DNA of 55,038 nucleotides, counting the filler, from Jimgerdemannia flammicorona (lineage: Eukaryota), in the NCBI GenBank assembly GCA_003990765.1. It is 3 parts of 3 records of this genome, joined end to end, with 100 filler letters (N's around TTAATTAATTAA, not from the genome) between each part and the next. Parts side by side here need not be neighbours in the genome. Positions count along the whole stretch, not along the records: positions 36,774 to 55,038 come from RBNJ01002250.1; 2 more parts are not named here. One strand, written 5' to 3'. Position 1 is the stretch's first letter. Each line of letters starts with the position of its first letter. The notes under the pieces were generated by a model, which did no database searches, had not been told where the DNA came from, and saw only the letters and a list, made by a program, of their open reading frames with translations. Below, in pieces: positions 9,117 to 55,038 of this stretch. The translations under genes were made by a program, and so were the position numbers.

Positions 9117-9629
9117 TCAGTTATTATCTCAATAGGCAAAAGCAGCTTCTATATCTATACCTGTTCCATCATTATCATCTGAACTATGGTCACTCTATTC
9201 TAAGGGCTCCTCTTCTTTTTTAGAGAATAAGATCTCAACTTAGTGAATGATACTGAGGTAGGTAGGCAGTATTATCCTTTGGAGGTTATTCAGGGAGAAC
9301 TGGGCCTGGATTAAGACAGAAGGGTTCTGTTTGTAGATTGTGTATAGTCTGTTTGCAGCAGTAGTATTCCTTCTGTTCAGGCCAGTGGTGTTATGGACAT
9401 AGACCAGGTCTGAGAGGGGAAGATTCTGTAATTGTTCTCCAATTGTATAGTATGCCTACAGCTGGTGGACCTAGAGTAGTCTCTCAGCCAGAGTGAGGTT
9501 TTCTTGATGAATCTGGATTTTCTGGAGGTATGTTTTATTGGGTTTCTGGAACTGTGGCAGGAGAACTAGTAGGGCTTGAAGGGAACTGAGGATAAGGGTC
9601 TAGAGGCAGTTATCAATTCTCTGGTTCAT
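9117..9629 (-). pseudogene. ORF3 of family 1 (~170 aa, unknown function) between integrase and 3' LTR
   Basis: Manual translation MNQRIDNCL*TLIL...QL*AYYTIGEQLQNLPLSDLVYVHNTTGLNRRNTTAANRLYTIYKQNP...SDDNDG. No frameshift; all internal stops are explicable as C>T of CAG/CAA/CGA. Confidence 0.75.
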
Positions 9630-20563: not shown

Positions 20564-23500
20564 ATGGCAAGTAAGGCTGATCCTCTTGGGTCTAAGAGGG
20601 ACCTATCGTGTATGAGATGTAGGGGAAAGAAGGCCAGGCAAGTCTTCTTTATTTAGAATCCACCTAATAGGGTCCCTCCGTGCCAAAGTTTGACGTGTGC
20701 GTGTAACGGATCCGCCACAGGGTTTAACTTCGTGGCTTTTGGTTTTTGCATACATTTTCAATCTACACAGGTGCTCAAGAACAAAGCCGAAATGTAGCCG
20801 ATGCGCACGCGGCAAACACGATGTACGTTTTGTGCCTACTGAGCGTGCTCTTGCGTACTTCTCTCACACACCGCCTCTTCCCCCACACACCGCTTCTTCT
20901 CCCACACACACGAAATTGTGAACTCAGCCCGCGCCAACCTCTCTTCCCACTTCGTTTCCCGGTCTTCACTCCCGCCCTGCCCTCTTACATACAGTGCATA
21001 TACCCTACCGTCGCCCCCTCTCTCGGCAAGCTTTCCAACCAAGTCACCACGCTCTTCGACGCCCTCGGTCGCCTGGAACACCGGCTCGCGGTGATTGGGG
21101 GCGACGAGCTCACACCTCGACCCGCCCTCGACCCGTGTGTCCCCATAGGTAACGACGATGGGGACAGCGATGTAGACGACGATGCGGACGGCAGTGGCGA
21201 CGACAGCCCAGACGACAGTAGTGTGACGATTAAGGTTGGTGGCGGCAAGAAGCGCGGCAAGGTGAACGAGACGTTGAAGCCACACGAAATTTTACAGACG
21301 ATCGCCGGGCTTCACTCGGTGCTGGAGCGGCTGGACGAGCGAACCAAGGTGCTGGTAGAGCGGCAGGTGGCGTCGGCAGCTGGGGAAAAGGCGAAGGCAC
21401 TGGCCGGGGACAAGATGCAGTTGGAGCGCGAGGAGGACAAGGACGAGGACGGGAACGGTCTGAACGAGTCGCAGCATCATCTCGCGACTAAGGGCGCGTT
21501 GATTGCGGACGGGAGCGCCCCGGCGCGATCCCGCGCAAAGCGTCAAAAGCATCAAGATCAGCCGGCGGAGGTCAATCCCATGCTCGCTATGGCGTTTGTC
21601 GCGCCCTCTCCACCACCCCCGCCAGCCTTGTGGACGATTGCTTCATCACCGGCTGGGATTACGATCCAGGCGAGCGTGCAGAACCTCAACGACCTGTCCG
21701 CGTTCCTGCAAGACTTTAAGAAACTAGGCGTGAATGACGAGGCCGAGGCGGACGAGAATGGCTCTTCGTCCTCGCCTTCGCCGATCCCTACGAAAAACCA
21801 CCTCCTCACCGATTCGGCGCATAACGCCAATCAGACCACTTTGCTTCCCACAGACAACACGACCGTTCTACACATCACACCGACCAAAGGTTTTGGCAAG
21901 GAAGCCATCATCGAATTCAATAAAGACGGCCCCAATCTAACGCCAGGGCACTCTCGTACTCCCAACGAACTTGCGACGCAAAGCGTCATAAAGGACGTAC
22001 TACACGCCTACTTCGAGTACCGGTGCTGCCACCAGCAGCGCACGGTCTTCCTGGAGCGCGACTCCTTCTACCGCGAACACTACGGGTCGGCCACTCTCCC
22101 GCCGGTCACAGACCCGTCCTCAACACCCTCGCTCCTGCTTATTTACTCCATGTGCGTCTTCTCCTGCAAGAAATTTTACCGACTGCACCCGCCAGCCACT
22201 AACCAGAATCGCCCGTGGTTTGCCAACCAGCAATTGGTCGTCGCGATGGAGGATTGGTTCTACGAGCAGTCGCGCACGCTCCTCGCCGAGTGCTTCGACA
22301 CCCCCTCCCTGGCCGTTATCCAGGCCCTGATCCACCTGCACTACTTCGAGTGCTTCCGCAAGAACCACAAAGTTGCCTATATGCTCATCGGTATGGCCAT
22401 CCGCATAGCCTTTGACCTCCGCCTCTTCCGCACCGAGGAAGCGGACGAGGCACCCGCACCCGCGCTGGCTTTCTCGCCAGTCTTTGCCGCGGCGACAGCG
22501 GCGGCGACGACGACGGTGACGATGGCGGCGACGACGACGGCGACAGTGGCGGCGATGGCGATGACGACGGCGACGGCGACGGCGACGGCGTGCGACAGCC
22601 CGCGCAGCCCGTACTCGGAAGATTCGTTGGACTCGTCGAGCACGTTGTCGAGTCTGAGTTCGATGACGCGCGCCAAGGAAGAGAGGCGTCTGACCACCTT
22701 CAAACTGCTCTTCCTCGACCTCTTCTCCGCTTTCCATGCCGGAGAACCCTCCGTTATCGACGACCGCGAGTGGGACCGCATTCCTCTGCACCGCAAGCGC
22801 ATCGAGCTCAGCATTACACACGAACCTTGCGAGGCTGACCCGGCAAGGCTCGCGTGCGTCCAACTGTTCCTTAACAACATGACACTCATGCGCGTACAGA
22901 AGCGCATCATGGCAAAGCTATACTCGCCCGAGGCGCAGGATCGCGCGGCAAGAGTGATGGCGGCTAAGACCGGGACTATCAGCACACCCTATGGCCCTGG
23001 CTCCCCCTTCCCGGACGACGAAGACGAGCATCTGGTAACGCGCACAGTGAACATGCTTCACGGAGAGTTGACGGAATGGTACCGTCAGTTACCAGATTAC
23101 TTTGTCTTCGACCCCCAAAACCCAGACGCAAACCCCACCTTCCCGCCTGCTGCCCTCCCAATGCATCCGCCACCCTACATTCCCCCCGCGGCACCGTCGG
23201 CCGCGCGCATGCGCACACTTTGCCGCCTTGTGCTGCACCAATTTTATCAACTGAACCGGATCTTTCTCTACCAGCTGTTCATCCCGACGTCGGCGGATGA
23301 CCAATCGGTCTCGTCCGTTGACTTCTTGGAGATGTGCCTGGACGCCGCACGTTCCATTACCCGACTGACGGAGATGTTGGTCGAGGAAGGGTCGTGCTTC
23401 ATCAACCTGCAGTCCGTCTTCTTCGCGGGTATGATCTATGTAAAGTACGCCAAGCTGTACATAGGTGACCCGGCGATTGTCGCTGAAGCAGAGAAGGGCC

Positions 23501-23655
23501 TGCTAAGGTGTGCCCAGGCACTCAGGGGGAGTCTGTCGTTCAGGTTCGAGCTTGATCTGTGCCAGGATTACGTAGTGCACATCGAGGAGTTCATTAGCGA
23601 ACTGAAGAAAGCTGTCGCCACACAGGCACAGGAACAGATGCCGGAGAACGCGTAG
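20564..23655 (+). CDS. Zn(II)2Cys6 fungal transcription factor with fungal-TF middle homology domain; exons 20564-20637, 20771-20822, 20995-23655
   Basis: Spliced N-terminus reads SCMRCRGKKARCSRTKPKCSRCARGKHDCIYP. The motifs SLAVIQALIHL...AYMLIGMAIRIAFDLRL and EERR...LFLD are typical of Fungal_trans. Confidence 0.9.
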
Positions 23656-40515: not shown

Positions 40516-40772
40516 AGTGTGCTTAATAAATTAAATCAAAGGTCTGATTTAATTCAATTTGAACTCTATTTTGTGAAATATAATAACTTGACCAAAATAT
40601 ATTCAAATTTAATAATCTTTAGCTTATTAAATTTGAACATATTTTTATTAAGTTATTATATTTCAAAAAAATAAAGTTCAAATTAGACCCTTAATTTGAT
40701 TTAAATTTAATTCAATTTAAATAAGCCTGAATTTGATTTGATTCAAATTGATTTAATTTATTTAGAAATACT
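40516..40772. mobile_element. Short palindromic MITE
   Basis: Starts TAGTG and ends TACTA. Arms ~40555-40615 and ~40625-40685 are inverted copies, with TTGATTT/AATTCAA subterminal motifs. Confidence 0.6.
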
Positions 40773-46468: not shown

Positions 46469-48002
46469 TGTAACAGTAACCCCAGAATGATGACATCAGC
46501 ACAGGAGACAGCCTTTCTTTACAAGCCACTAGATCGGAGTACAAGAAGATTATACAGTATATAAGATGAGCAATGATGACCAACTGTGAGTCATTGTGAC
46601 CACAGCACAAGCATTCCAAAGAATATAAAAGAAGGATCAAGAAACCGCAGTAGCAATAACCAAAACCACCAATCCCAAAATAGCTCAAAGACTTACCACA
46701 AACAAAATGCCTGCTGCTCACCAAACCTCAAGGTCAAGGAATCATCAAGATATCTCGGTCGAGGAAAGGATGTTCCAAGACATCAGAAGAGCCATGAGAA
46801 CCTGCTCAAGAAGGACTCCTAGTGTCAACCTGGGTACTGCAGACCCCTATCACTTTATTCTCTACTACTGCGAAATGGAAACAAGGATCACTATTGCCAC
46901 CGAATACCTCCAAATGTGGCAGAAATATGAAATAGGAAACCTCCTCTGCTGGGAGTTCCCACAGGCCAGCCCTCAAGAGCTACAAGATGCTACTCCCATG
47001 AACCTATGTGAGGCAAGAACAGTAAAGAAGATCTATCAGATCTTCAGGCATACACCATGGTTGATCCCCAACTTGGAGTATGTTAGAGTCTCAGACTTTA
47101 GAGACCTGTCATCCTGCCGTATCAATGCACTAGAAGCCAGGGTAGCCACAGAAGTCCAGTCCACCATCACCCTCAACAGTGAAGAAGTAGAAGACTTCTG
47201 GCACCCTATCCTTCAGAACAACCCAGACCAATTCCTGCAAGGATTGATCTCAGTATTCCAAGGCCCAAGCATCTGGGTTAGATCTCCCCAAGACCCCACA
47301 TTTGTCCCCTATTTTGTGGAAGAGAACCTCATAGACTGAATAGCTCCAGATCTTGTTCCTGATTTCCCTGCCGAACGTGATGACATCATCGATGACATCA
47401 TCCGGCGTGACATACCCGAAGCACGCGAAGTACACGAAATGCATAATAATGAAGTATGCGAGATGCGTGGCCTGCACGACGAATTTGCAGACCTCATCTC
47501 CTTCAGTGATGATGATGATGAAGCTCCCATGGTCCTGAACTTTCTGCTCTAAGTTCTTTGTTACACTGGATAATGCCAGCACCGGTATTCTCATGTAACA
47601 CTGGATAATGCCAGCACTGGTATTCTGAGATGATGCAAAATTGTTCCAGCACTGGCATTTTGATGTGATACTAAATAATGTCAGCCCTGGAACTTAGTAG
47701 TTTTAGTTATTGAAATTTATATTTAGCTTTATATCTTAGCAACCATTGAATTATATTTTGTATAAATACCTCTCTTATTTTCTCTGAAATAAAGTCAGTC
47801 AAGTTCCGGTTTCACTTACACACACTTTCTTGCAAGTAATCTAAGAGATAACAAGACAGTTAAAGATAAGAAGTTTGAGGACTATAAGACCTAGGGAAGG
47901 CACTCCAATAAGAACTTACTTATAACAACTTGAGTTAGTCTAAGAGATACACCTTGAAGAGAATCTGGCATATTTGAAGGACTCAGTGACCACTATGTGA
48001 CA
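46469..48002 (+). repeat. 5' LTR of family 2 (1534 bp)
   Basis: TGTAACA...TGTGACA ends; TATAAATA at 47761; AATAAA near 47788; direct repeat of 53707 onward. Confidence 0.9.
46707..47552 (+). pseudogene. LTR-encoded ORF3 (281 codons; one TGG>TGA stop at 47337)
   Basis: The frame continues past the stop to ...EAPMVLNFLL*. The other LTR has TGG at that codon. Confidence 0.8.
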
Positions 48003-48005
48003 ACT

Positions 48006-48022
48006 TGGTGCCCATTGGCTGG
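48006..48022 (+). promoter_or_regulatory. Primer binding site (tRNA identity uncertain)
   Basis: TGGTGCCCATTGGCTGG starts three bases after the LTR-terminal CA. Confidence 0.65.
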
Positions 48023-48123: not shown

Positions 48124-51100
48124 ATGGAAATGCATCCCTCTACATTCTATAGATATACTACTGAAGAGTCAATCCTGACCTTCATTGAAGACTTTGAACA
48201 ATTTGCCACTGTATGAGCCCTTGGTGTGGATGCTCAATTGGCCCTTCTACTAGTTAGCCTCAGAGGACCTGCCAGAGATAAGTTCAATGCAGCCACCATT
48301 GCTGATGCTGGTGCAGCCAAACTTACCAACATGAAGGCCTTCCTCAGAACAACATATTATACTGAAGAGATCAATCAAGCTCTCAAGGATCAACTCAATA
48401 CTATCTGCCAGGGACTTAGTGAAGATCCCAACTCATTCTATACCCAAATTTGCCACCAGATTGTCTTGGCTGGCTATGATGATTGTCTCAAGGAACAAAT
48501 TGCAGATTCAACCTTCCTCAAAGGAGTTTACCCTGAAATTGCCCTAGCAATCTAGTCTACCCTAGCTGCACTGACCCTTGATCAGAAAGTGGTCTTTGCA
48601 CAGAGATATTGGACTGCCAGACACCCTGCTGAACACTCAATGGAGAAAATAACTGACATCAAGATGGAGCCATCAAAGCCAACTAGTATCTTACCTACCA
48701 CAGTTGTAAACAGACAACCAATCCCACCTACCCCCAAGACAACCAAAGCTGACCCAGTGGAAGAACTTGCAAAGCAGTTCACCGAGATGACTGCACACCT
48801 TGGTGATGTTGTTAGAGAAGTCTGAAGCACCAACAGGAGACCAGTACAGAGATTTGCAGCTGCTACAGAAGAACATAATAATATCACATACTTCAGATGT
48901 GGAGAAGAAGGCCACTATGCAAAGAATTATATGACCAAAACAAGACGCAAAGCCCAACCAAGCAATGCTAGCAGAACTAGAGAACAAACCAATGCAGTAG
49001 TCATTGAGAAGATTGGTGACACTGATGATGAAGAGTATTATGAGGAGCTCGAATTCTACCCTGCTACTGAAGGTACCAGAACCCGGTCCAAGCCCTATGA
49101 CAAGAAGAGCAATAGCAAGCCAGTTGGAAGACCAAAAAAGACTCCAGCTGTCACTATTCAAAGTAAGACCCAACACAAGGAGATTGATTAAGATATGGAG
49201 TTAGACGAGGCTGCCCACCAAATTATCGAAGGTACTACTCTAGTCTTAGAAGAAAGCGAGAGCAAGAAGGAACAGAAGCTGTACAAGACCAAGATTCACC
49301 AGTATAATATCTACAAGAACCTCAAGGAACAGAAGGTCAATGTCACTTTTGGGCAGCTAGCTGAGGTCCCTGCCTTCAGATAGCAGTTGAGAGTAGGACT
49401 TGTAACTACTGTCAAGAATCAAGAGTATAAGATTGTAAAAGCTCACAATGTACAAGAAGAATCTGAGAACTCAGGTGAAGAATCCGAAGACCAGTGCAAG
49501 ACATCAGCCTATACCCCCTGCCAGATTGAAGACTGTATCTTTGATGCCATCATTGATACTAGTGCTGGAGGATGCCTCATAAGTAAGAAGGCAATTGACC
49601 GCCTAGGTTGGGATATTGAAGAGTCCACCAAAATGGTCTATGTTACAGCAGACAATACACAAGCTACCCCCCTTGGCAAAATCCGAGAAGTCCCCATCAA
49701 GATAGGAGGAGCTACCATCCCAGTAGACGTGATTATTACAAGTGCCACCAACTATGACATCCTCATTGGCAACCAATGACTTCATAAGGCCAAGGCCATT
49801 ATTGACCTCAATACCCAGAAGATGCAGATCAACTACAGAGGGAGAAAGGTACGAGTTTCTATCAATGTCCACAAAGGAGTCCTGCCAGACATGGAGAAAG
49901 GAGATGAAGAAGATACAGAGGTCTTCATGCACTCAGTGAACAAGAACAAGAACAAGACACCCAAGCTCACAGATGAGCAGTGGTATAACAAGATCATCGA
50001 TAGGTATGCCCCTCAAGGAAGATACCCCCATGGTACTAGAATGTACTGCTCCGAACACCTGAATGACTGCTGGTCCTGTATCAGCAAAGTCAGGAAAATC
50101 CACCAACAAAAATATGAGCAAGAAGCTGCTGAAGCAAAAAGGAAAGCTGAAGAAGATGACCAGCCCCCAGAGCTTCAAGCTGACAGTGATGATAAGGAGG
50201 AACAAGAACCAGACATCACTCTCAAGGTCAAGAAGTTTCACCCTGAAGCCAAGATCCCAGAATATAAGACTGAAGGAGCCATAGGAATGGATCTTGCCAG
50301 TATCCAAGATACTACCCTCGAACCACAGACCACCACCTTACTTGGCACTGGAATTGGAGTCAAGTTGCCAGAAAACCATGCTGGAATTATCAAGACCAGG
50401 AGCAGTCTGGCCAAAAGCAAAATCTCAGTTGAAGGAGGAATAATTGACCCTGATTACACTGGTGAGATTTTTCTCATAGTCAGAAATCACAACCACACCA
50501 CTCCCTTCGAAGTCAAGAAGTATGACAGGATTGGCCAGATGCTGATCCATGAAATCAAGAAGCCTAAGATCATAGAGACCACTGAACTTATTAAGACTAA
50601 GAGAGGAGAACAAGGCTTTGGATCTACTGGAAGAGGAGCCTATGCCGCCACCAAGATTACCAAACTTGAGCATAAGAAAAACAAGGACCAGAACAAGCAC
50701 ACATATACCATTGGAGAAAACTTTCCCTTGGAGGAACAACTTCTCAAGATTCTGTATCAGAATGAAGGAGTACTTGCTACAGACTTTAGGGATATCCACA
50801 ATCAAGAACCCAAGTACCACCATGAAGTTGACACTGATGATACCAAGCCTATCTACCAGAAAGCCAGACCCATACCACCTGCCTACAGAGAGTGGCTGCG
50901 AGCCGAACTTAAGGAAATGGAAGAAGCTGGAATCATCAAGCAAGCTATCAGCCCCTGGGCCTCACCCATTGTCCTTGCCCCGAAGAAAGGAAGCAAGCCT
51001 GGAGAGTTCACACTAAGACTCTGCATTGACTACAGGAAACTCAATGCCATCACCAAGAAGGATAGGCAGCCCTTGCTGAATATTCAAGAAATCCTTACCA

Positions 51101-52152
51101 CCCTTGGAAGTGAAGCCAAATACTACACCACCTTGGATCTGTTCTCAGGCTTCCATCAGATCGGTCTCACTCAAGATGCCAGTGAGAAATCAGCCTTCAT
51201 CACACCTGATGCCACCTACATCTATCTGCAAATACCATTTGGAATGTACAATGCCTCAGCAAGTTTCCAGCAAATAATGAACAGAGTCTTCAGCAATGAG
51301 ATTGGAAAATAGCTCTTTATCTATGTTGATGATGTGATCATCTTCAGCAATACTGCACGGGAACATATCAATCATATACAGCTAGCCCTCAAGAGGCTCA
51401 AGGAGCATGGCCTCTACATCAAGCCCAAGAAATGCAAGTTTGCAGCTCAAGAAATCACCTACCTAGGATACCTCATCAACCAGACTGGAATCCACACAGA
51501 CCCCATGAAGATCAAGGCTGTTGTAGCCTATCCAAGATCCAGAACAACCACAGAAGTCCATGCCTTCCTTGGACTGGCCAGCTACTACAGAAGATTTATC
51601 AAAGGATACTCCAACATTGCAGTACCTATCTATGAGCTATTGAAGAAGGAGACCAAATTCGAATGGACCAAGGAGTGCCAAGAAATCTTCAATGAACTTA
51701 AGACCAGGTTGACCCAAGCACCCATCCTCAGAAGACCAGACTGGAACCTAGAATTCATCCTGCAGATAGACACAAGTGCTATAGGACTTGGAGCGGTCCT
51801 AGCTCAGAAGAAAGATGGACATGAATATGTCATCTCCTATGCAAGCCGAGGTACCTGCAGAGCAGAGCAGAACTACGAGTCATACAAGCTTGAATGCTTA
51901 GCAGTAGTTTGGGCAGTAGACAAATTCCACTACTACCTAGCTGGAAAACACTTCACCATTCAGACAGACCATTCCGCTCTTGCCTGGCTATTCCACACTC
52001 TGAACCCCAAAGGAATATATGTCAGATGGATCTACAGACTGCAAGAATATAACTGTACTATCAAGCACCGCCCAGGAAAGACCAACACCAATGCCAATGC
52101 ACTCTCAAGGACACCCCAAAACATCCCCATCAAGACTATTCAACATGAATAA
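48124..52152 (+). pseudogene. gag-pol single frame: gag, CCHC, protease, dUTPase, RT, RNase H (several in-frame stops)
   Basis: (C)FRCGEEGHYAKN(C), AIIDTSAGG, LCIDYRKLN, YVDD, ILQIDTS...TDHSAL...NANALSR. The ORF-track pieces from 48226 to 51334 share one frame. Confidence 0.92.
50218..50635 (+). CDS. dUTPase domain (intact motifs) between protease and RT
   Basis: GAIGMDL, TRSSLA, GGIIDPDYTGEI, DRIGQ, KRGEQGFGSTG. Confidence 0.95.
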
Positions 52153-53392
52153 GGAGCTATACTATGGATTAATTAGCTACCTTGGGCAGCGGAAGATGCC
52201 CAACCACCTTGAACCCTGGACAATCACTATCATCAACCAAACTTGGAAACAGTTTGAATTAGACAACACTACACTCAGAAAAGGAGGAAAGCTAGTAATA
52301 CTTGAACACAAGAAGTATCAAGTAATGAAGGAAGTACATGAGCAAGGACACTTAGGAGGAACTAACATATATGACAAGGCAAGAAGAACTATATAGTGGC
52401 TCAAGATAGAAGAAGACCTATGCCAATTTGTCAAAGGGTGTAACAAGTGCCAAAAACAGAAACAAGATCAGCAAGACCAGGCACCCGGATCATCAAGAAT
52501 CGAACCTATCCCCTTCCACCATATCGCAATGGATATCATTGGACCACTACCAGTAACACTATCAGGAAACCACTATATTATAGTTATTGTAGACCTCTTT
52601 ACCAAATGGATAGAGGCAGGAGTATTACAAGAAGTCAATGCCTTCTCTATAGCTGATTTTCTATACCGAGAAATCATCTGCTGCTACAAGACACCAAAGC
52701 AAATCACAATAGACCACGGCACAGAATTTGTCAATGGATTCCATGAGATAATATACCAGAAATACAAGATCCAGTACATCAAGACCACCACATACCACCC
52801 TCAAGGAAATGGACAGACAGAGAGAACCAACAAGACCCTCAAGAACATCCTAGCAAAGATCTTAGAGACATATGAGAATTGGGATAACTATCTCTCAACT
52901 GTCCTCTCTATTCTACGAGACACATGATCACAGAGCACACATTTTACCCCAAGAGAGCTGCTCTTTGGAGAAGAAGATTCTAATGGAACCTCAGTCATAA
53001 ATCTAGACCTAACTTGGAGACAGGTTGATGCAGAAATCCAGAGACTATACCAAATTAGGAAGAAGACTGAAGATTATATCACCAAGTCACAAGCACTGAT
53101 AAGGAAGAATGTGGAAAAGAATCACAAGGCCCTAGAACCCATCCGAATTGGAGAAAAGGTTCTACTGTATCGAAATATGGTAGAAGGCTCATGGTTACGA
53201 AAACTGGAGCCCAAATGGGAAGGACCCTTCTACATGCAAGATATCAAGGGAACTACCTTCTGGCATAGAAAAATCTCAGAGACCATACTGCCTACCATGG
53301 TACATAGGAACAGACTCAAGAAGTACCACGAACCTATACAAGAGAAGCAAAATGTGATGACTGCCCATGAGGTTCTAGTCCATGAATCGTAA
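52145..53392 (+). pseudogene. Integrase ORF of family 2 (separate frame, own ATG)
   Basis: MNKELYYG...HEQGHLG...C.KCQK, MDIIGPLP, DLFTKW, TIDHGTEF, YHPQGNGQTERTN, KLEPKWEGPF. Confidence 0.9.
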
Positions 53393-53696
53393 CAGCATGT
53401 CCTATGACCAGCAGGCTATCTGTCTGGACCATTCTCTAAGGGATACAGCACTAGCAATTACTCATCCATGAAGACTTTCACAGTCAGAGGAGTTCGAACC
53501 ATCAACTGATTGGTCAAGATCAGAATCAGGTCCTTGCTCTATATGAAGGAAGCGACTCTTCACCATTATGCCAAAATATAAAGAGAAGACACCAGCCCAT
53601 AAACACCAGTTTTTGACCCCTTGCCAGAGGTTATGGGATCAGCAAATTTTTCAGGACTAGACCAATGAATAAGGATGCTCAGGAAGATCCTTATTC

Positions 53697-53706
53697 AGGA
53701 GGAAGA
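53697..53706 (+). promoter_or_regulatory. Polypurine tract
   Basis: AGGAGGAAGA immediately precedes TGTAACA of the 3' LTR. Confidence 0.75.
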
Positions 53707-55038
53707 TGTAACAGTGACCCCAGAATGATAACATCAACACAGGAGATAGCCTTTCTTTACAAGCCACCAGATCGGAGTACAAGAAGATCATATGGCATAT
53801 GAGATGAGCAATGATGACCAACTGTAAGTCATTGTGACTACAGCACAAGTATTCCGAAGAATATAAAAGAAGGATCAAGAAACTGCAGTAGCAGCAACCA
53901 AAACCACCAATCCCAAAATAGCTCAAAGACTTACCACAAACAAAATGCCTGCTGCCTGCCAAACCTCAAGGTCAAGGAAGTATCAAGGTATCTCAGTCAA
54001 GGAAAAGATGTTCCAAGATATCAGAAGAGCTATGAGAACCCACTCAAGAAGGACTCCTAGTGTTAACCTGGGTACTGCAGACCCCTATCACTTTATTCTC
54101 TACTACCGTGAAATAGAAACAAGGATCACCATTGCCACCAAATGCCTCCAAATGTGGCAGAAATATGAAATAGGAAACCTCCTCTGCCAGGAGTTCCCAC
54201 AGGCCAGCCCTCAAGAGCTACAAGATGCCACTCCCATGGACCTACATGAGGCAAGGACAGCAAAGAAGATCCATCAGATCTTCAGGCATGCACCATAGTC
54301 AATCTCCAACTTGGAGTATGTTAGAGTCTCAGACTTCAGAGACCTGTCATCCTGCCATATCAATGCACTAGAAGTTAGGGTAGCTACAGAAGCCCAGTCT
54401 ACCATCACCCTCAACAGTGAAGAAGTAGAAGACTTCTGGCACCCTATCCTTCAGGACAACCCAGACCAATTCCTGCAAGGATTGATCTCAGTATTCCAAG
54501 GCCCAAGCATCCGGGTTAGATCTCTCCAAGACCTCACATTTGTCCCCTATTTTGTGGAAGAGAACCTCATAGACTGGAGAGCTCCAGATCTTGTCCCCAA
54601 TTTCCCTGCCGAACATGATGACATCATCGATGACATCATCCCATGTGACATACCCAAAGCACGCAAAGTATATGAAATGTGTGATAATGAAGTACGTGAG
54701 ACGCGCAGCCTGCATGACGAATTCGCAGACCTCATCTCCTTCAGTGATGATGATGATGAAGCTCCCATGGTCCTGAACTTTCTGCTCTAAGTTCTTTGTT
54801 ACACTGGATAATGCCAGCACCGGTATTCTCATGTAACACTGGATAATGCCAGCACTGGTATTCTGAGGTGATGCGAAATTGTTCCAGCATCAGCATTTTG
54901 ATGTGATACTAAATAATGCCAGCCCTGGAACTTAGTAGTTTTAGTTATTGGAATTTATATTTAGCTTTATATCTTAGCAACTATTGAATTATATTTTGTA
55001 TAAATACCTCTCTTATTTCCTCTGAAATAAAGTCAGTT
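53707..55038 (+). repeat. 3' LTR of family 2 (partial)
   Basis: Direct repeat of 46469-47800. Confidence 0.9.
53945..54790 (+). pseudogene. LTR-encoded ORF3, second copy (one TGG>TAG stop at 54296)
   Basis: Same 846-bp frame as 46707-47552, with its stop at a different codon. Confidence 0.8.

Follow-up and report, generated by a model that had tools for sequence, protein, structure and literature searches.

An undescribed gene family under selection lies wholly within the U3 region of the LTRs in two high-copy retrotransposon families of the fungus Jimgerdemannia flammicorona, while a third family has it just beyond the LTR. It is almost certain that the U3 ORF is a genuine accessory gene of fungal Ty3/Gypsy retrotransposons. 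LTRs normally carry control signals only, and are annotated as non-coding. The window is the whole stretch of DNA analysed, 55,038 nucleotides in which three contigs of the 231 Mb assembly (GCA_003990765.1) are joined by runs of N. The element with the U3 ORF, here family 2, lies on RBNJ01002250.1 and the family-1 element on another contig (C2248); the two elements are therefore not neighbours.

The family-2 element has the order LTR, primer-binding site, gag-protease-dUTPase-RT-RNase H, integrase in a second frame, polypurine tract and LTR (Table 1). Pfam searches with successive ORFs gave the order protease-RT-RNase H-integrase, with dUTPase between protease and RT, and neither translation nor Pfam revealed a chromodomain after the integrase. 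The TG..CA LTR ends, primer-binding site, polypurine tract and target duplication are Ty3/Gypsy hallmarks; the target duplication of the family was read from seven solo copies. The 3′ end of the element in the window is cut. The LTR length, earlier given as 1332 bp, was corrected to 1534 bp (46469-48002, TG..CA, with the primer-binding site from 48006). Between the 5′ LTR and the 3′ LTR there are 91 transitions but only 3 transversions.

Table 1. Features of the family-2 element and of family-1 ORF3, in positions of the window
Feature	Position	Strand	Remarks
Family-1 internal ORF3, 170 aa, other contig	9120..9629	-	Selection; 5 metagenome relatives; weak profile match
5′ LTR, 1534 bp, TG...CA	46469..48002	+	Direct repeat, 92.9% to 3′ LTR; ends from solo and 3′ copies
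TATA-like word, candidate own promoter (inferred)	46624..46630	+	83 nt upstream of ORF ATG
U3 accessory ORF, 281 codons + stop, 846 bp, ATG to TAA	46707..47552	+	Broken by a stop at codon 211
Two CRE/ATF-like words (TGACGTCA type) in the acidic-tail DNA of the ORF	47381..47400	+	Each one base off here
Main TATAAATA + AATAAA, U3/R region	47761..47793	+	Words at 47761 and 47788, 27 nt apart
Primer-binding site	48006..48022	+	Adjoins LTR only in 5′ copies; genome holds 1063 exact 14-mer matches
gag (zinc knuckle)-protease-dUTPase-RT-RNase H, single frame, several stops	48124..52152	+	Translation, Pfam
Integrase, separate frame	52144..53392	+	ATG overlaps RNase H stop; no chromodomain seen
Polypurine tract	53697..53706	+	Directly 5′ of 3′ LTR copies; 468 exact junction matches
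3′ LTR, ends at contig end	53707..55038	+	Incomplete copy
Second U3 ORF copy, 3′ LTR	53945..54790	+	Colinear, no indel; premature stop at codon 118

The integrase opens its own frame at 52144-52152. Three other family-2 copies have an equal frame offset and a fourth is off by one base; family 1 has a similar RNase H/integrase frame split. The overlapping ATG and stop suggest stop-restart translation rather than a single Pol. In family 2 the dUTPase (50245-50631) follows protease and precedes RT; in family 3 it comes before protease, a difference in position that suggests separate captures. A small post-pol ORF in family 2 (from 53382) was rejected as a gene, with fixed stops and no constraint.

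The earlier note had reported one 846-bp ORF in both LTRs, each copy broken by a different stop. This was confirmed: the two copies are colinear without indel, and each premature stop is private to one LTR, the other having a sense codon at the matching position. The ORF was therefore open at insertion, as had been claimed. Both copies in the window are dead, and the 16 synonymous and 41 other codon changes between them read as neutral decay. The placement in U3 also held, because TATAAATA and AATAAA stand downstream of the ORF, which ends about 210 nt upstream of the TATA and AATAAA words. The spacing between TATAAATA and AATAAA is 26-27 nt in families 3 and 4 too.

For codon-level comparison we used 60 family-2 copies, 30 of them picked by DNA and the other 30 found by protein search, which favours intact ORFs. 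In the DNA-picked copies the ORF frame was broken by 0-4 internal stops, whereas the remaining sense frames had 8-15 and 18-24, and 10 of the 30 copies were open over codons 1-215. Distinct indels were counted after merging gaps within 25 nt. In 29 DNA-picked copies (L002-L030) all 15 indels inside the ORF kept the frame, compared with 6 of 26 outside it (p=1e-6); across all copies the counts were 29/29 and 9/50. The ORF indels concentrate in its tail, which is repetitive; slippage there tends to yield multiples of three, and this makes the indel test somewhat weaker.

Variants present in three or more copies were treated as shared, and taken to reflect transposing lineages. Among the 60 copies, shared T>C/A>G variants fell on 24 of 92 synonymous sites and on 8 of 223 nonsynonymous ones, a ratio of 0.14 (p=2e-8); the 78 codons upstream of the ORF gave 1.56 and shifted frames about 5.5. 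The unbiased 30 DNA-picked copies alone gave a ratio of 0.46, which is not significant (p=0.14) and resembles the integrase control (0.49, p=0.08). Comparison of copies thus revealed an open frame under codon-level constraint. Between families, identity at codon positions 1/2/3 was 54/68/42% and 52/60/40%. Three metagenome searches returned five homologues of the U3 ORF, five credible ones of six, and five. One candidate, P0010 (E 2e-4), was dropped as a repetitive protein.

A stop-poor U3 stretch retained for its regulatory DNA might also look open. Inside the ORF tail there are indeed TGACGTCA-type words, which we take to be CRE/ATF-like and which are perfect in 34/60 and 38/60 family-2 copies, and in the unbiased subset the synonymous bias falls short of significance. 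Against such a stretch stand the indels that keep the frame, the divergence of the families at third positions, and the open homologues, 28-48% identical, that occur in three families and in metagenomes; we regard this reading as exceedingly improbable.

Ratios were near neutral for singleton transversions (0.93) and for C>T/G>A changes (0.94). In the 60 copies the C>T change was 0.245 at CpG, 0.070 at CpA, 0.054 at CpC and 0.019 at CpT, a context bias of methylation-type decay after insertion. Selection on the U3 ORF acts only in transposing lineages, and inserted copies decay neutrally.

Homologues of the gene occupy two positions. Families 3 and 4, both of high copy number, were found by searching the genome with two distant metagenome proteins. 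Family 3 is a chromovirus family with dUTPase before protease, its chromodomain-like end being named by eye from translation. Its homologue is 41-48% identical to the family-2 U3 ORF in the core and is internal: the stop is followed by the purine tract and the LTR start in 29/29 parsed rows (27 places; 21 of 50 loci were cut or unparsed). No ORF was found in the family-3 LTR of about 780 bp. The metagenome locus L087 has the family-3 layout, with the ORF stop and then purine tract and LTR. In family 4, a 328-aa homologue, 28-30% identical to the family-2 ORF, lies in both LTRs (2350 bp) of two full elements, and 22 of 25 parsed rows place its ATG 206-216 nt into the LTR. These layouts show that the gene switches between U3 and an internal position.

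The earlier note had drawn such a switch between the internal ORF3 of family 1 and the U3 ORF of family 2. The switch is real, by way of the chromovirus homologue, but the tests of homology to family-1 ORF3 gave no significant result. No match was obtained with tblastn between the two ORFs, hhalign gave a suggestive match of about 50 core columns with probabilities of 0.7% and 1.4%, and the HMM scores fell within the range of shuffles, being reached by 1-3 of 200 at best and by 29-49 in other rows. Homology between the two ORFs is possible. Family-1 ORF3 is a real gene in its own right, with shared transversions at 6/162 synonymous and 1/789 nonsynonymous sites, and has an acidic-aromatic tail. 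Its start overlaps the integrase stop and its end lies about 50 nt before the purine tract and LTR start. The family-1 LTR is longer than the visible 1150-bp repeat, because the other LTR ends at the contig end.

Two further observations concern families 3 and 4. A short family-3 derivative (LTR, about 1.4 kb, accessory ORF, LTR) sits inside a family-2 element at L122:5985-9899; it has no RT, RNase H or integrase match and is a possible non-autonomous carrier of the gene. A 258-nt spacer common to families 3 and 4 contains an antisense tRNA-like stretch with D-loop-like and B-box-like words (L132:6735-6805 and L165:6500-6570), of which family 2 keeps only the B-box-like word (53488-53500). Rfam and ARAGORN gave no match to the tRNA-like spacer. 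It may serve as a Pol III promoter or as an insulator, or form a structured RNA.

The kinship of the ORFs does not follow that of pol. In an RT-RNase H tree chromovirus family 3 was separated from families 1, 2 and 4 (100/100); families 1 and 4 group together (59%), family 2 comes next (45%), and family 3 stands apart (39%). In the ORF core, family 2 is nearer to family 3 (41-48%) than to family 4 (28-30%). Families 3 and 4 have 258 nt of post-integrase DNA in common at 80%, while their pol DNA barely aligns. This disagreement of ORF and pol trees makes it very probable that a 3′ cassette was swapped between pol lineages. The swap would have proceeded by template switching. Whether the cassette lies just inside or just outside the LTR would depend on the plus-strand priming site: with a polypurine tract upstream of it, the cassette would be copied into both LTRs, and with the tract at the ORF stop codon it would stay internal.

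The earlier note had the gene moving into U3. That direction found no particular support, since the midpoint-rooted ORF tree, (family 4 U3, (family 2 U3, family 3 + L087-type internal)), fits a single exit from the LTR at least as well. In the reverse direction, an LTR-borne gene of a non-chromoviral lineage would have come first, and the chromovirus would have captured a donor 3′ end (spacer, old LTR head and ORF) and left it internal. One exit suffices for this on the tree as rooted, but the root is only a midpoint and long branches are flagged. Family 3 is the odd pol lineage and yet has the spacer in common with family 4, and in one pairwise alignment a TGTGAC word in family 3 stands near the family-4 LTR start, without a purine tract; the spacer alignment is, however, weak, 15 of 500 shuffles reaching the match of the stretch before the family-4 LTR head to the family-3 spacer. 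Family 1, the pol sister of family 4, has an internal ORF3 in the same slot, which also speaks against an exit, as does the common position of extra ORFs between pol and 3′ LTR (PMC7264820). We consider the reverse direction a serious possibility, somewhat short of an even one.

A TATA-like word precedes the gene in every family. It stands 83-89 nt upstream of the ATG in 55/57 family-2 copies, 68-73 nt upstream in 27/27 family-3 copies, 62 nt upstream in 15/15 family-4 copies and 80 nt upstream in L087. An extra ATG within the last 60 nt before the ORF is rare (5/57 family-2 copies). The family-2 LTR head aligned to the L087 internal spacer above all 300 shuffles; three other pairs of LTR head and spacer, including the family-4 head and family-3 spacer, gave no alignment above shuffles. 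The TATA-like word in each family, together with the alignment of the family-2 head and L087 spacer, makes it seem that the promoter travels with the gene. Genomic RNA would begin downstream of the 5′ ORF, with the 3′ ORF following gag-pol, and transcription of the gene would therefore most likely start at a TATA promoter of its own. Solo and paired LTRs alike are thus probably small transcription units, each with a promoter about 83 nt upstream of the ORF and an end at the LTR poly(A) signal. In two runs guessed to be RNA (6-7% of words), contigs cover LTR parts more than gag; contigs of this kind are uninformative as to expression, strand and start.

Solo LTRs with 4-bp target duplications made up 7 of the 60 copies, and 5 of the 30 DNA-picked ones (the seven are L004, L016, L024, L026, L029, L037 and L057). 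Their duplications are AT-rich, ATAT occurring three times and ATAG twice. Solo LTRs do not transpose, and the gene is therefore preserved in them and not spread by them. The earlier proposal that they would spread the ORF is right in that solo copies carry it, but they are a minority (5/30) and keep the gene in place. Exact-word counts in the genome were 996 for ORF sites, 468 for tract-LTR junctions and 1063 for primer sites, the words being retained in 38/60, 17/26 and 12/14 copies respectively; the primer word may also occur in other families. By rough estimate the genome holds about 1,600 LTR ORFs, mostly in paired elements.

The protein was modelled with AlphaFold from an alignment of three families. 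The core (codons 18-218) was predicted to be mostly helical, with pLDDT 76 and pTM 0.71, and to consist of a 37-residue helix, a small helical bundle and then a helix with short strands; with close copies only, pLDDT was 34. The first 40 residues are basic in family 2 (9-10 K+R against 2-3 D+E) and the N-terminus is also basic in families 3 and 4, while P0013 and P0008 do not have clearly basic first 40 residues. The tail is 22-32% acidic and 5-11% aromatic, is also characterised by leucine, and cannot be aligned across families. A tail motif, F..LI.F, is conserved in families 2 and 3 and absent from family 4. No transmembrane stretch was found in the U3 ORF protein (the highest 19-residue hydropathy is 0.5-0.8), and the transmembrane or signal segment by which env-like proteins are recognised is therefore missing from it. 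Pfam gave nothing at threshold, and the PDB sequence search gave 0 matches at E<=10. Foldseek returned nothing at E<=0.001 from PDB or BFVD; in the ESM Atlas the best scores (0.83 and 0.89) were below its bar, as were the helix-turn-helix rows, and the best VIA-align Z was 4.3 (rmsd 3.6, 84 aligned). Neither family, sequence nor fold searches gave a match that hinted at a function.

The basic N-terminus, helical core and acidic-aromatic tail fit best with a nuclear transactivator or anti-silencing factor, a role that we assign tentatively from this anatomy and rate at slightly under even. Such a protein would work in the nucleus and in trans, keeping elements transcribed. Contact with DNA or chromatin would fall to the basic N-terminus and the helical core, recruitment of host machinery to the acidic-aromatic tail, and the protein would target the methylation-type defence that these repeats reveal. 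Tails that keep an acidic-aromatic composition but not a sequence are typical of activation domains. The same property weighs against the main rival, a role after transcription, either as an RNA-binding or particle-associated helper (in export, packaging or nuclear import) or as a suppressor of RNA interference. There the conserved F..LI.F motif of families 2 and 3 would dock on a host protein, but family 4 does not have it. The basic N-terminus would suit RNA as well, no enzyme or transmembrane signature was seen, and comparison with the accessory proteins of retroviruses has led to proposals of such a role for the extra ORFs of plants (PMC7264820). On balance we find a post-transcriptional role rather unlikely.

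An effector that is selfish or aimed at the host, be it a toxin-antidote, a drive or an incompatibility factor, and that favours nuclei or spores with the element would suit the very high copy number (996 exact ORF-word matches), the exchange between unrelated pol lineages and the apparent stand-alone transcription unit. Neither Pfam nor PDB gave a match to such families, and inserted copies decay neutrally, so that selection is confined to transposing lineages; an effector is accordingly improbable. Sharing across pol lineages suggests that the protein acts on a host process. The explanation that joins a swapped cassette, an own promoter and a nuclear trans-acting protein has, as a whole, about an even chance of being right. 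The narrower statement, that the new family is a nuclear anti-silencing transactivator traded between Ty3/Gypsy lineages and crossing the LTR boundary through polypurine-tract shifts, is, taken as a whole, unlikely.

The comparison with MMTV sag made in the earlier note is fair as to layout, the ORF lying in U3. MMTV sag and nef are treated in PMC2664473 as long LTR ORFs clearly beyond the random range, in an MMTV LTR of 1300 nt. Like MMTV sag and lentiviral nef, the gene described here is a long sense ORF in the U3 of an unusually long LTR, and hence present in both LTRs; unlike them, it has a fungal host and belongs to a Ty3/Gypsy element without env. Its protein has no Pfam, PDB or BFVD match that would link it to the Sag, Nef or Bel proteins, and remote kinship is compatible with that absence. 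Sag is a membrane superantigen, whereas the U3 ORF protein has no transmembrane segment. Foamy virus Tas/Bel1, HTLV Tax and VANDAL VANC are element-encoded and promote transcription of their own element; the likeness to them is one of working model only, and no homology to them was found.

Among retrotransposons, the extra ORFs known as aORFs comprise plant env-like and antisense ORFs, maize Grande gene23, which has its own promoter and is nuclear, and fungal Boty, all in the internal region (PMC7264820). Rice Retrosat2 ORF0 lies upstream of gag-pol (PMC3485330). Like aORFs, the U3 ORF is a conserved, selected extra ORF of obscure origin in most copies of its family. An internal location, usual for aORFs, applies only to the family-3 homologue, which occupies their customary slot, after pol and ahead of the 3′ LTR; in families 2 and 4 the gene is, unlike aORFs, wholly within U3, and it is sense and without a transmembrane helix. 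The aORF review names no aORF within an LTR (PMC7264820), and no retrotransposon ORF inside an LTR is described in the available text of PMC2664473, PMC7264820, PMC5408684 and PMC3485330. Searches of the open-access literature for extra or LTR-borne ORFs turned up no LTR-internal gene of a fungal retrotransposon. A parallel for the exchange comes from bdelloid rotifers, where the same extra ORF in unrelated LTR lineages is explained by template switching (PMC5408684). The likeness to those elements extends to the spread over unrelated LTR lineages and to dUTPase-bearing Gypsy elements; the ORF3s described there encode env, GDSL or DEDDy proteins, whereas the U3 ORF protein has no family match and its gene crosses the LTR boundary.

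With both positions of one gene, this single genome offers a natural model for sag/nef-type overlap with U3 and for how LTR boundaries move. The gene is also a candidate counter-defence factor against fungal repeat silencing. If the anti-silencing reading is true, self-contained genes that boost the elements in trans would number well over a thousand, counting both paired and solo LTRs, and these LTR genes would help to explain the large repeat load of the genome.

Elsewhere in the window, two stretches, 1460-1924 (465 bp) and 40556-40684 (129 bp), are each self-inverted at about 85% and perhaps MITE-like. On the middle contig an open frame of 975 codons (20728-23655) has a Pfam match to a fungal-specific transcription factor domain.
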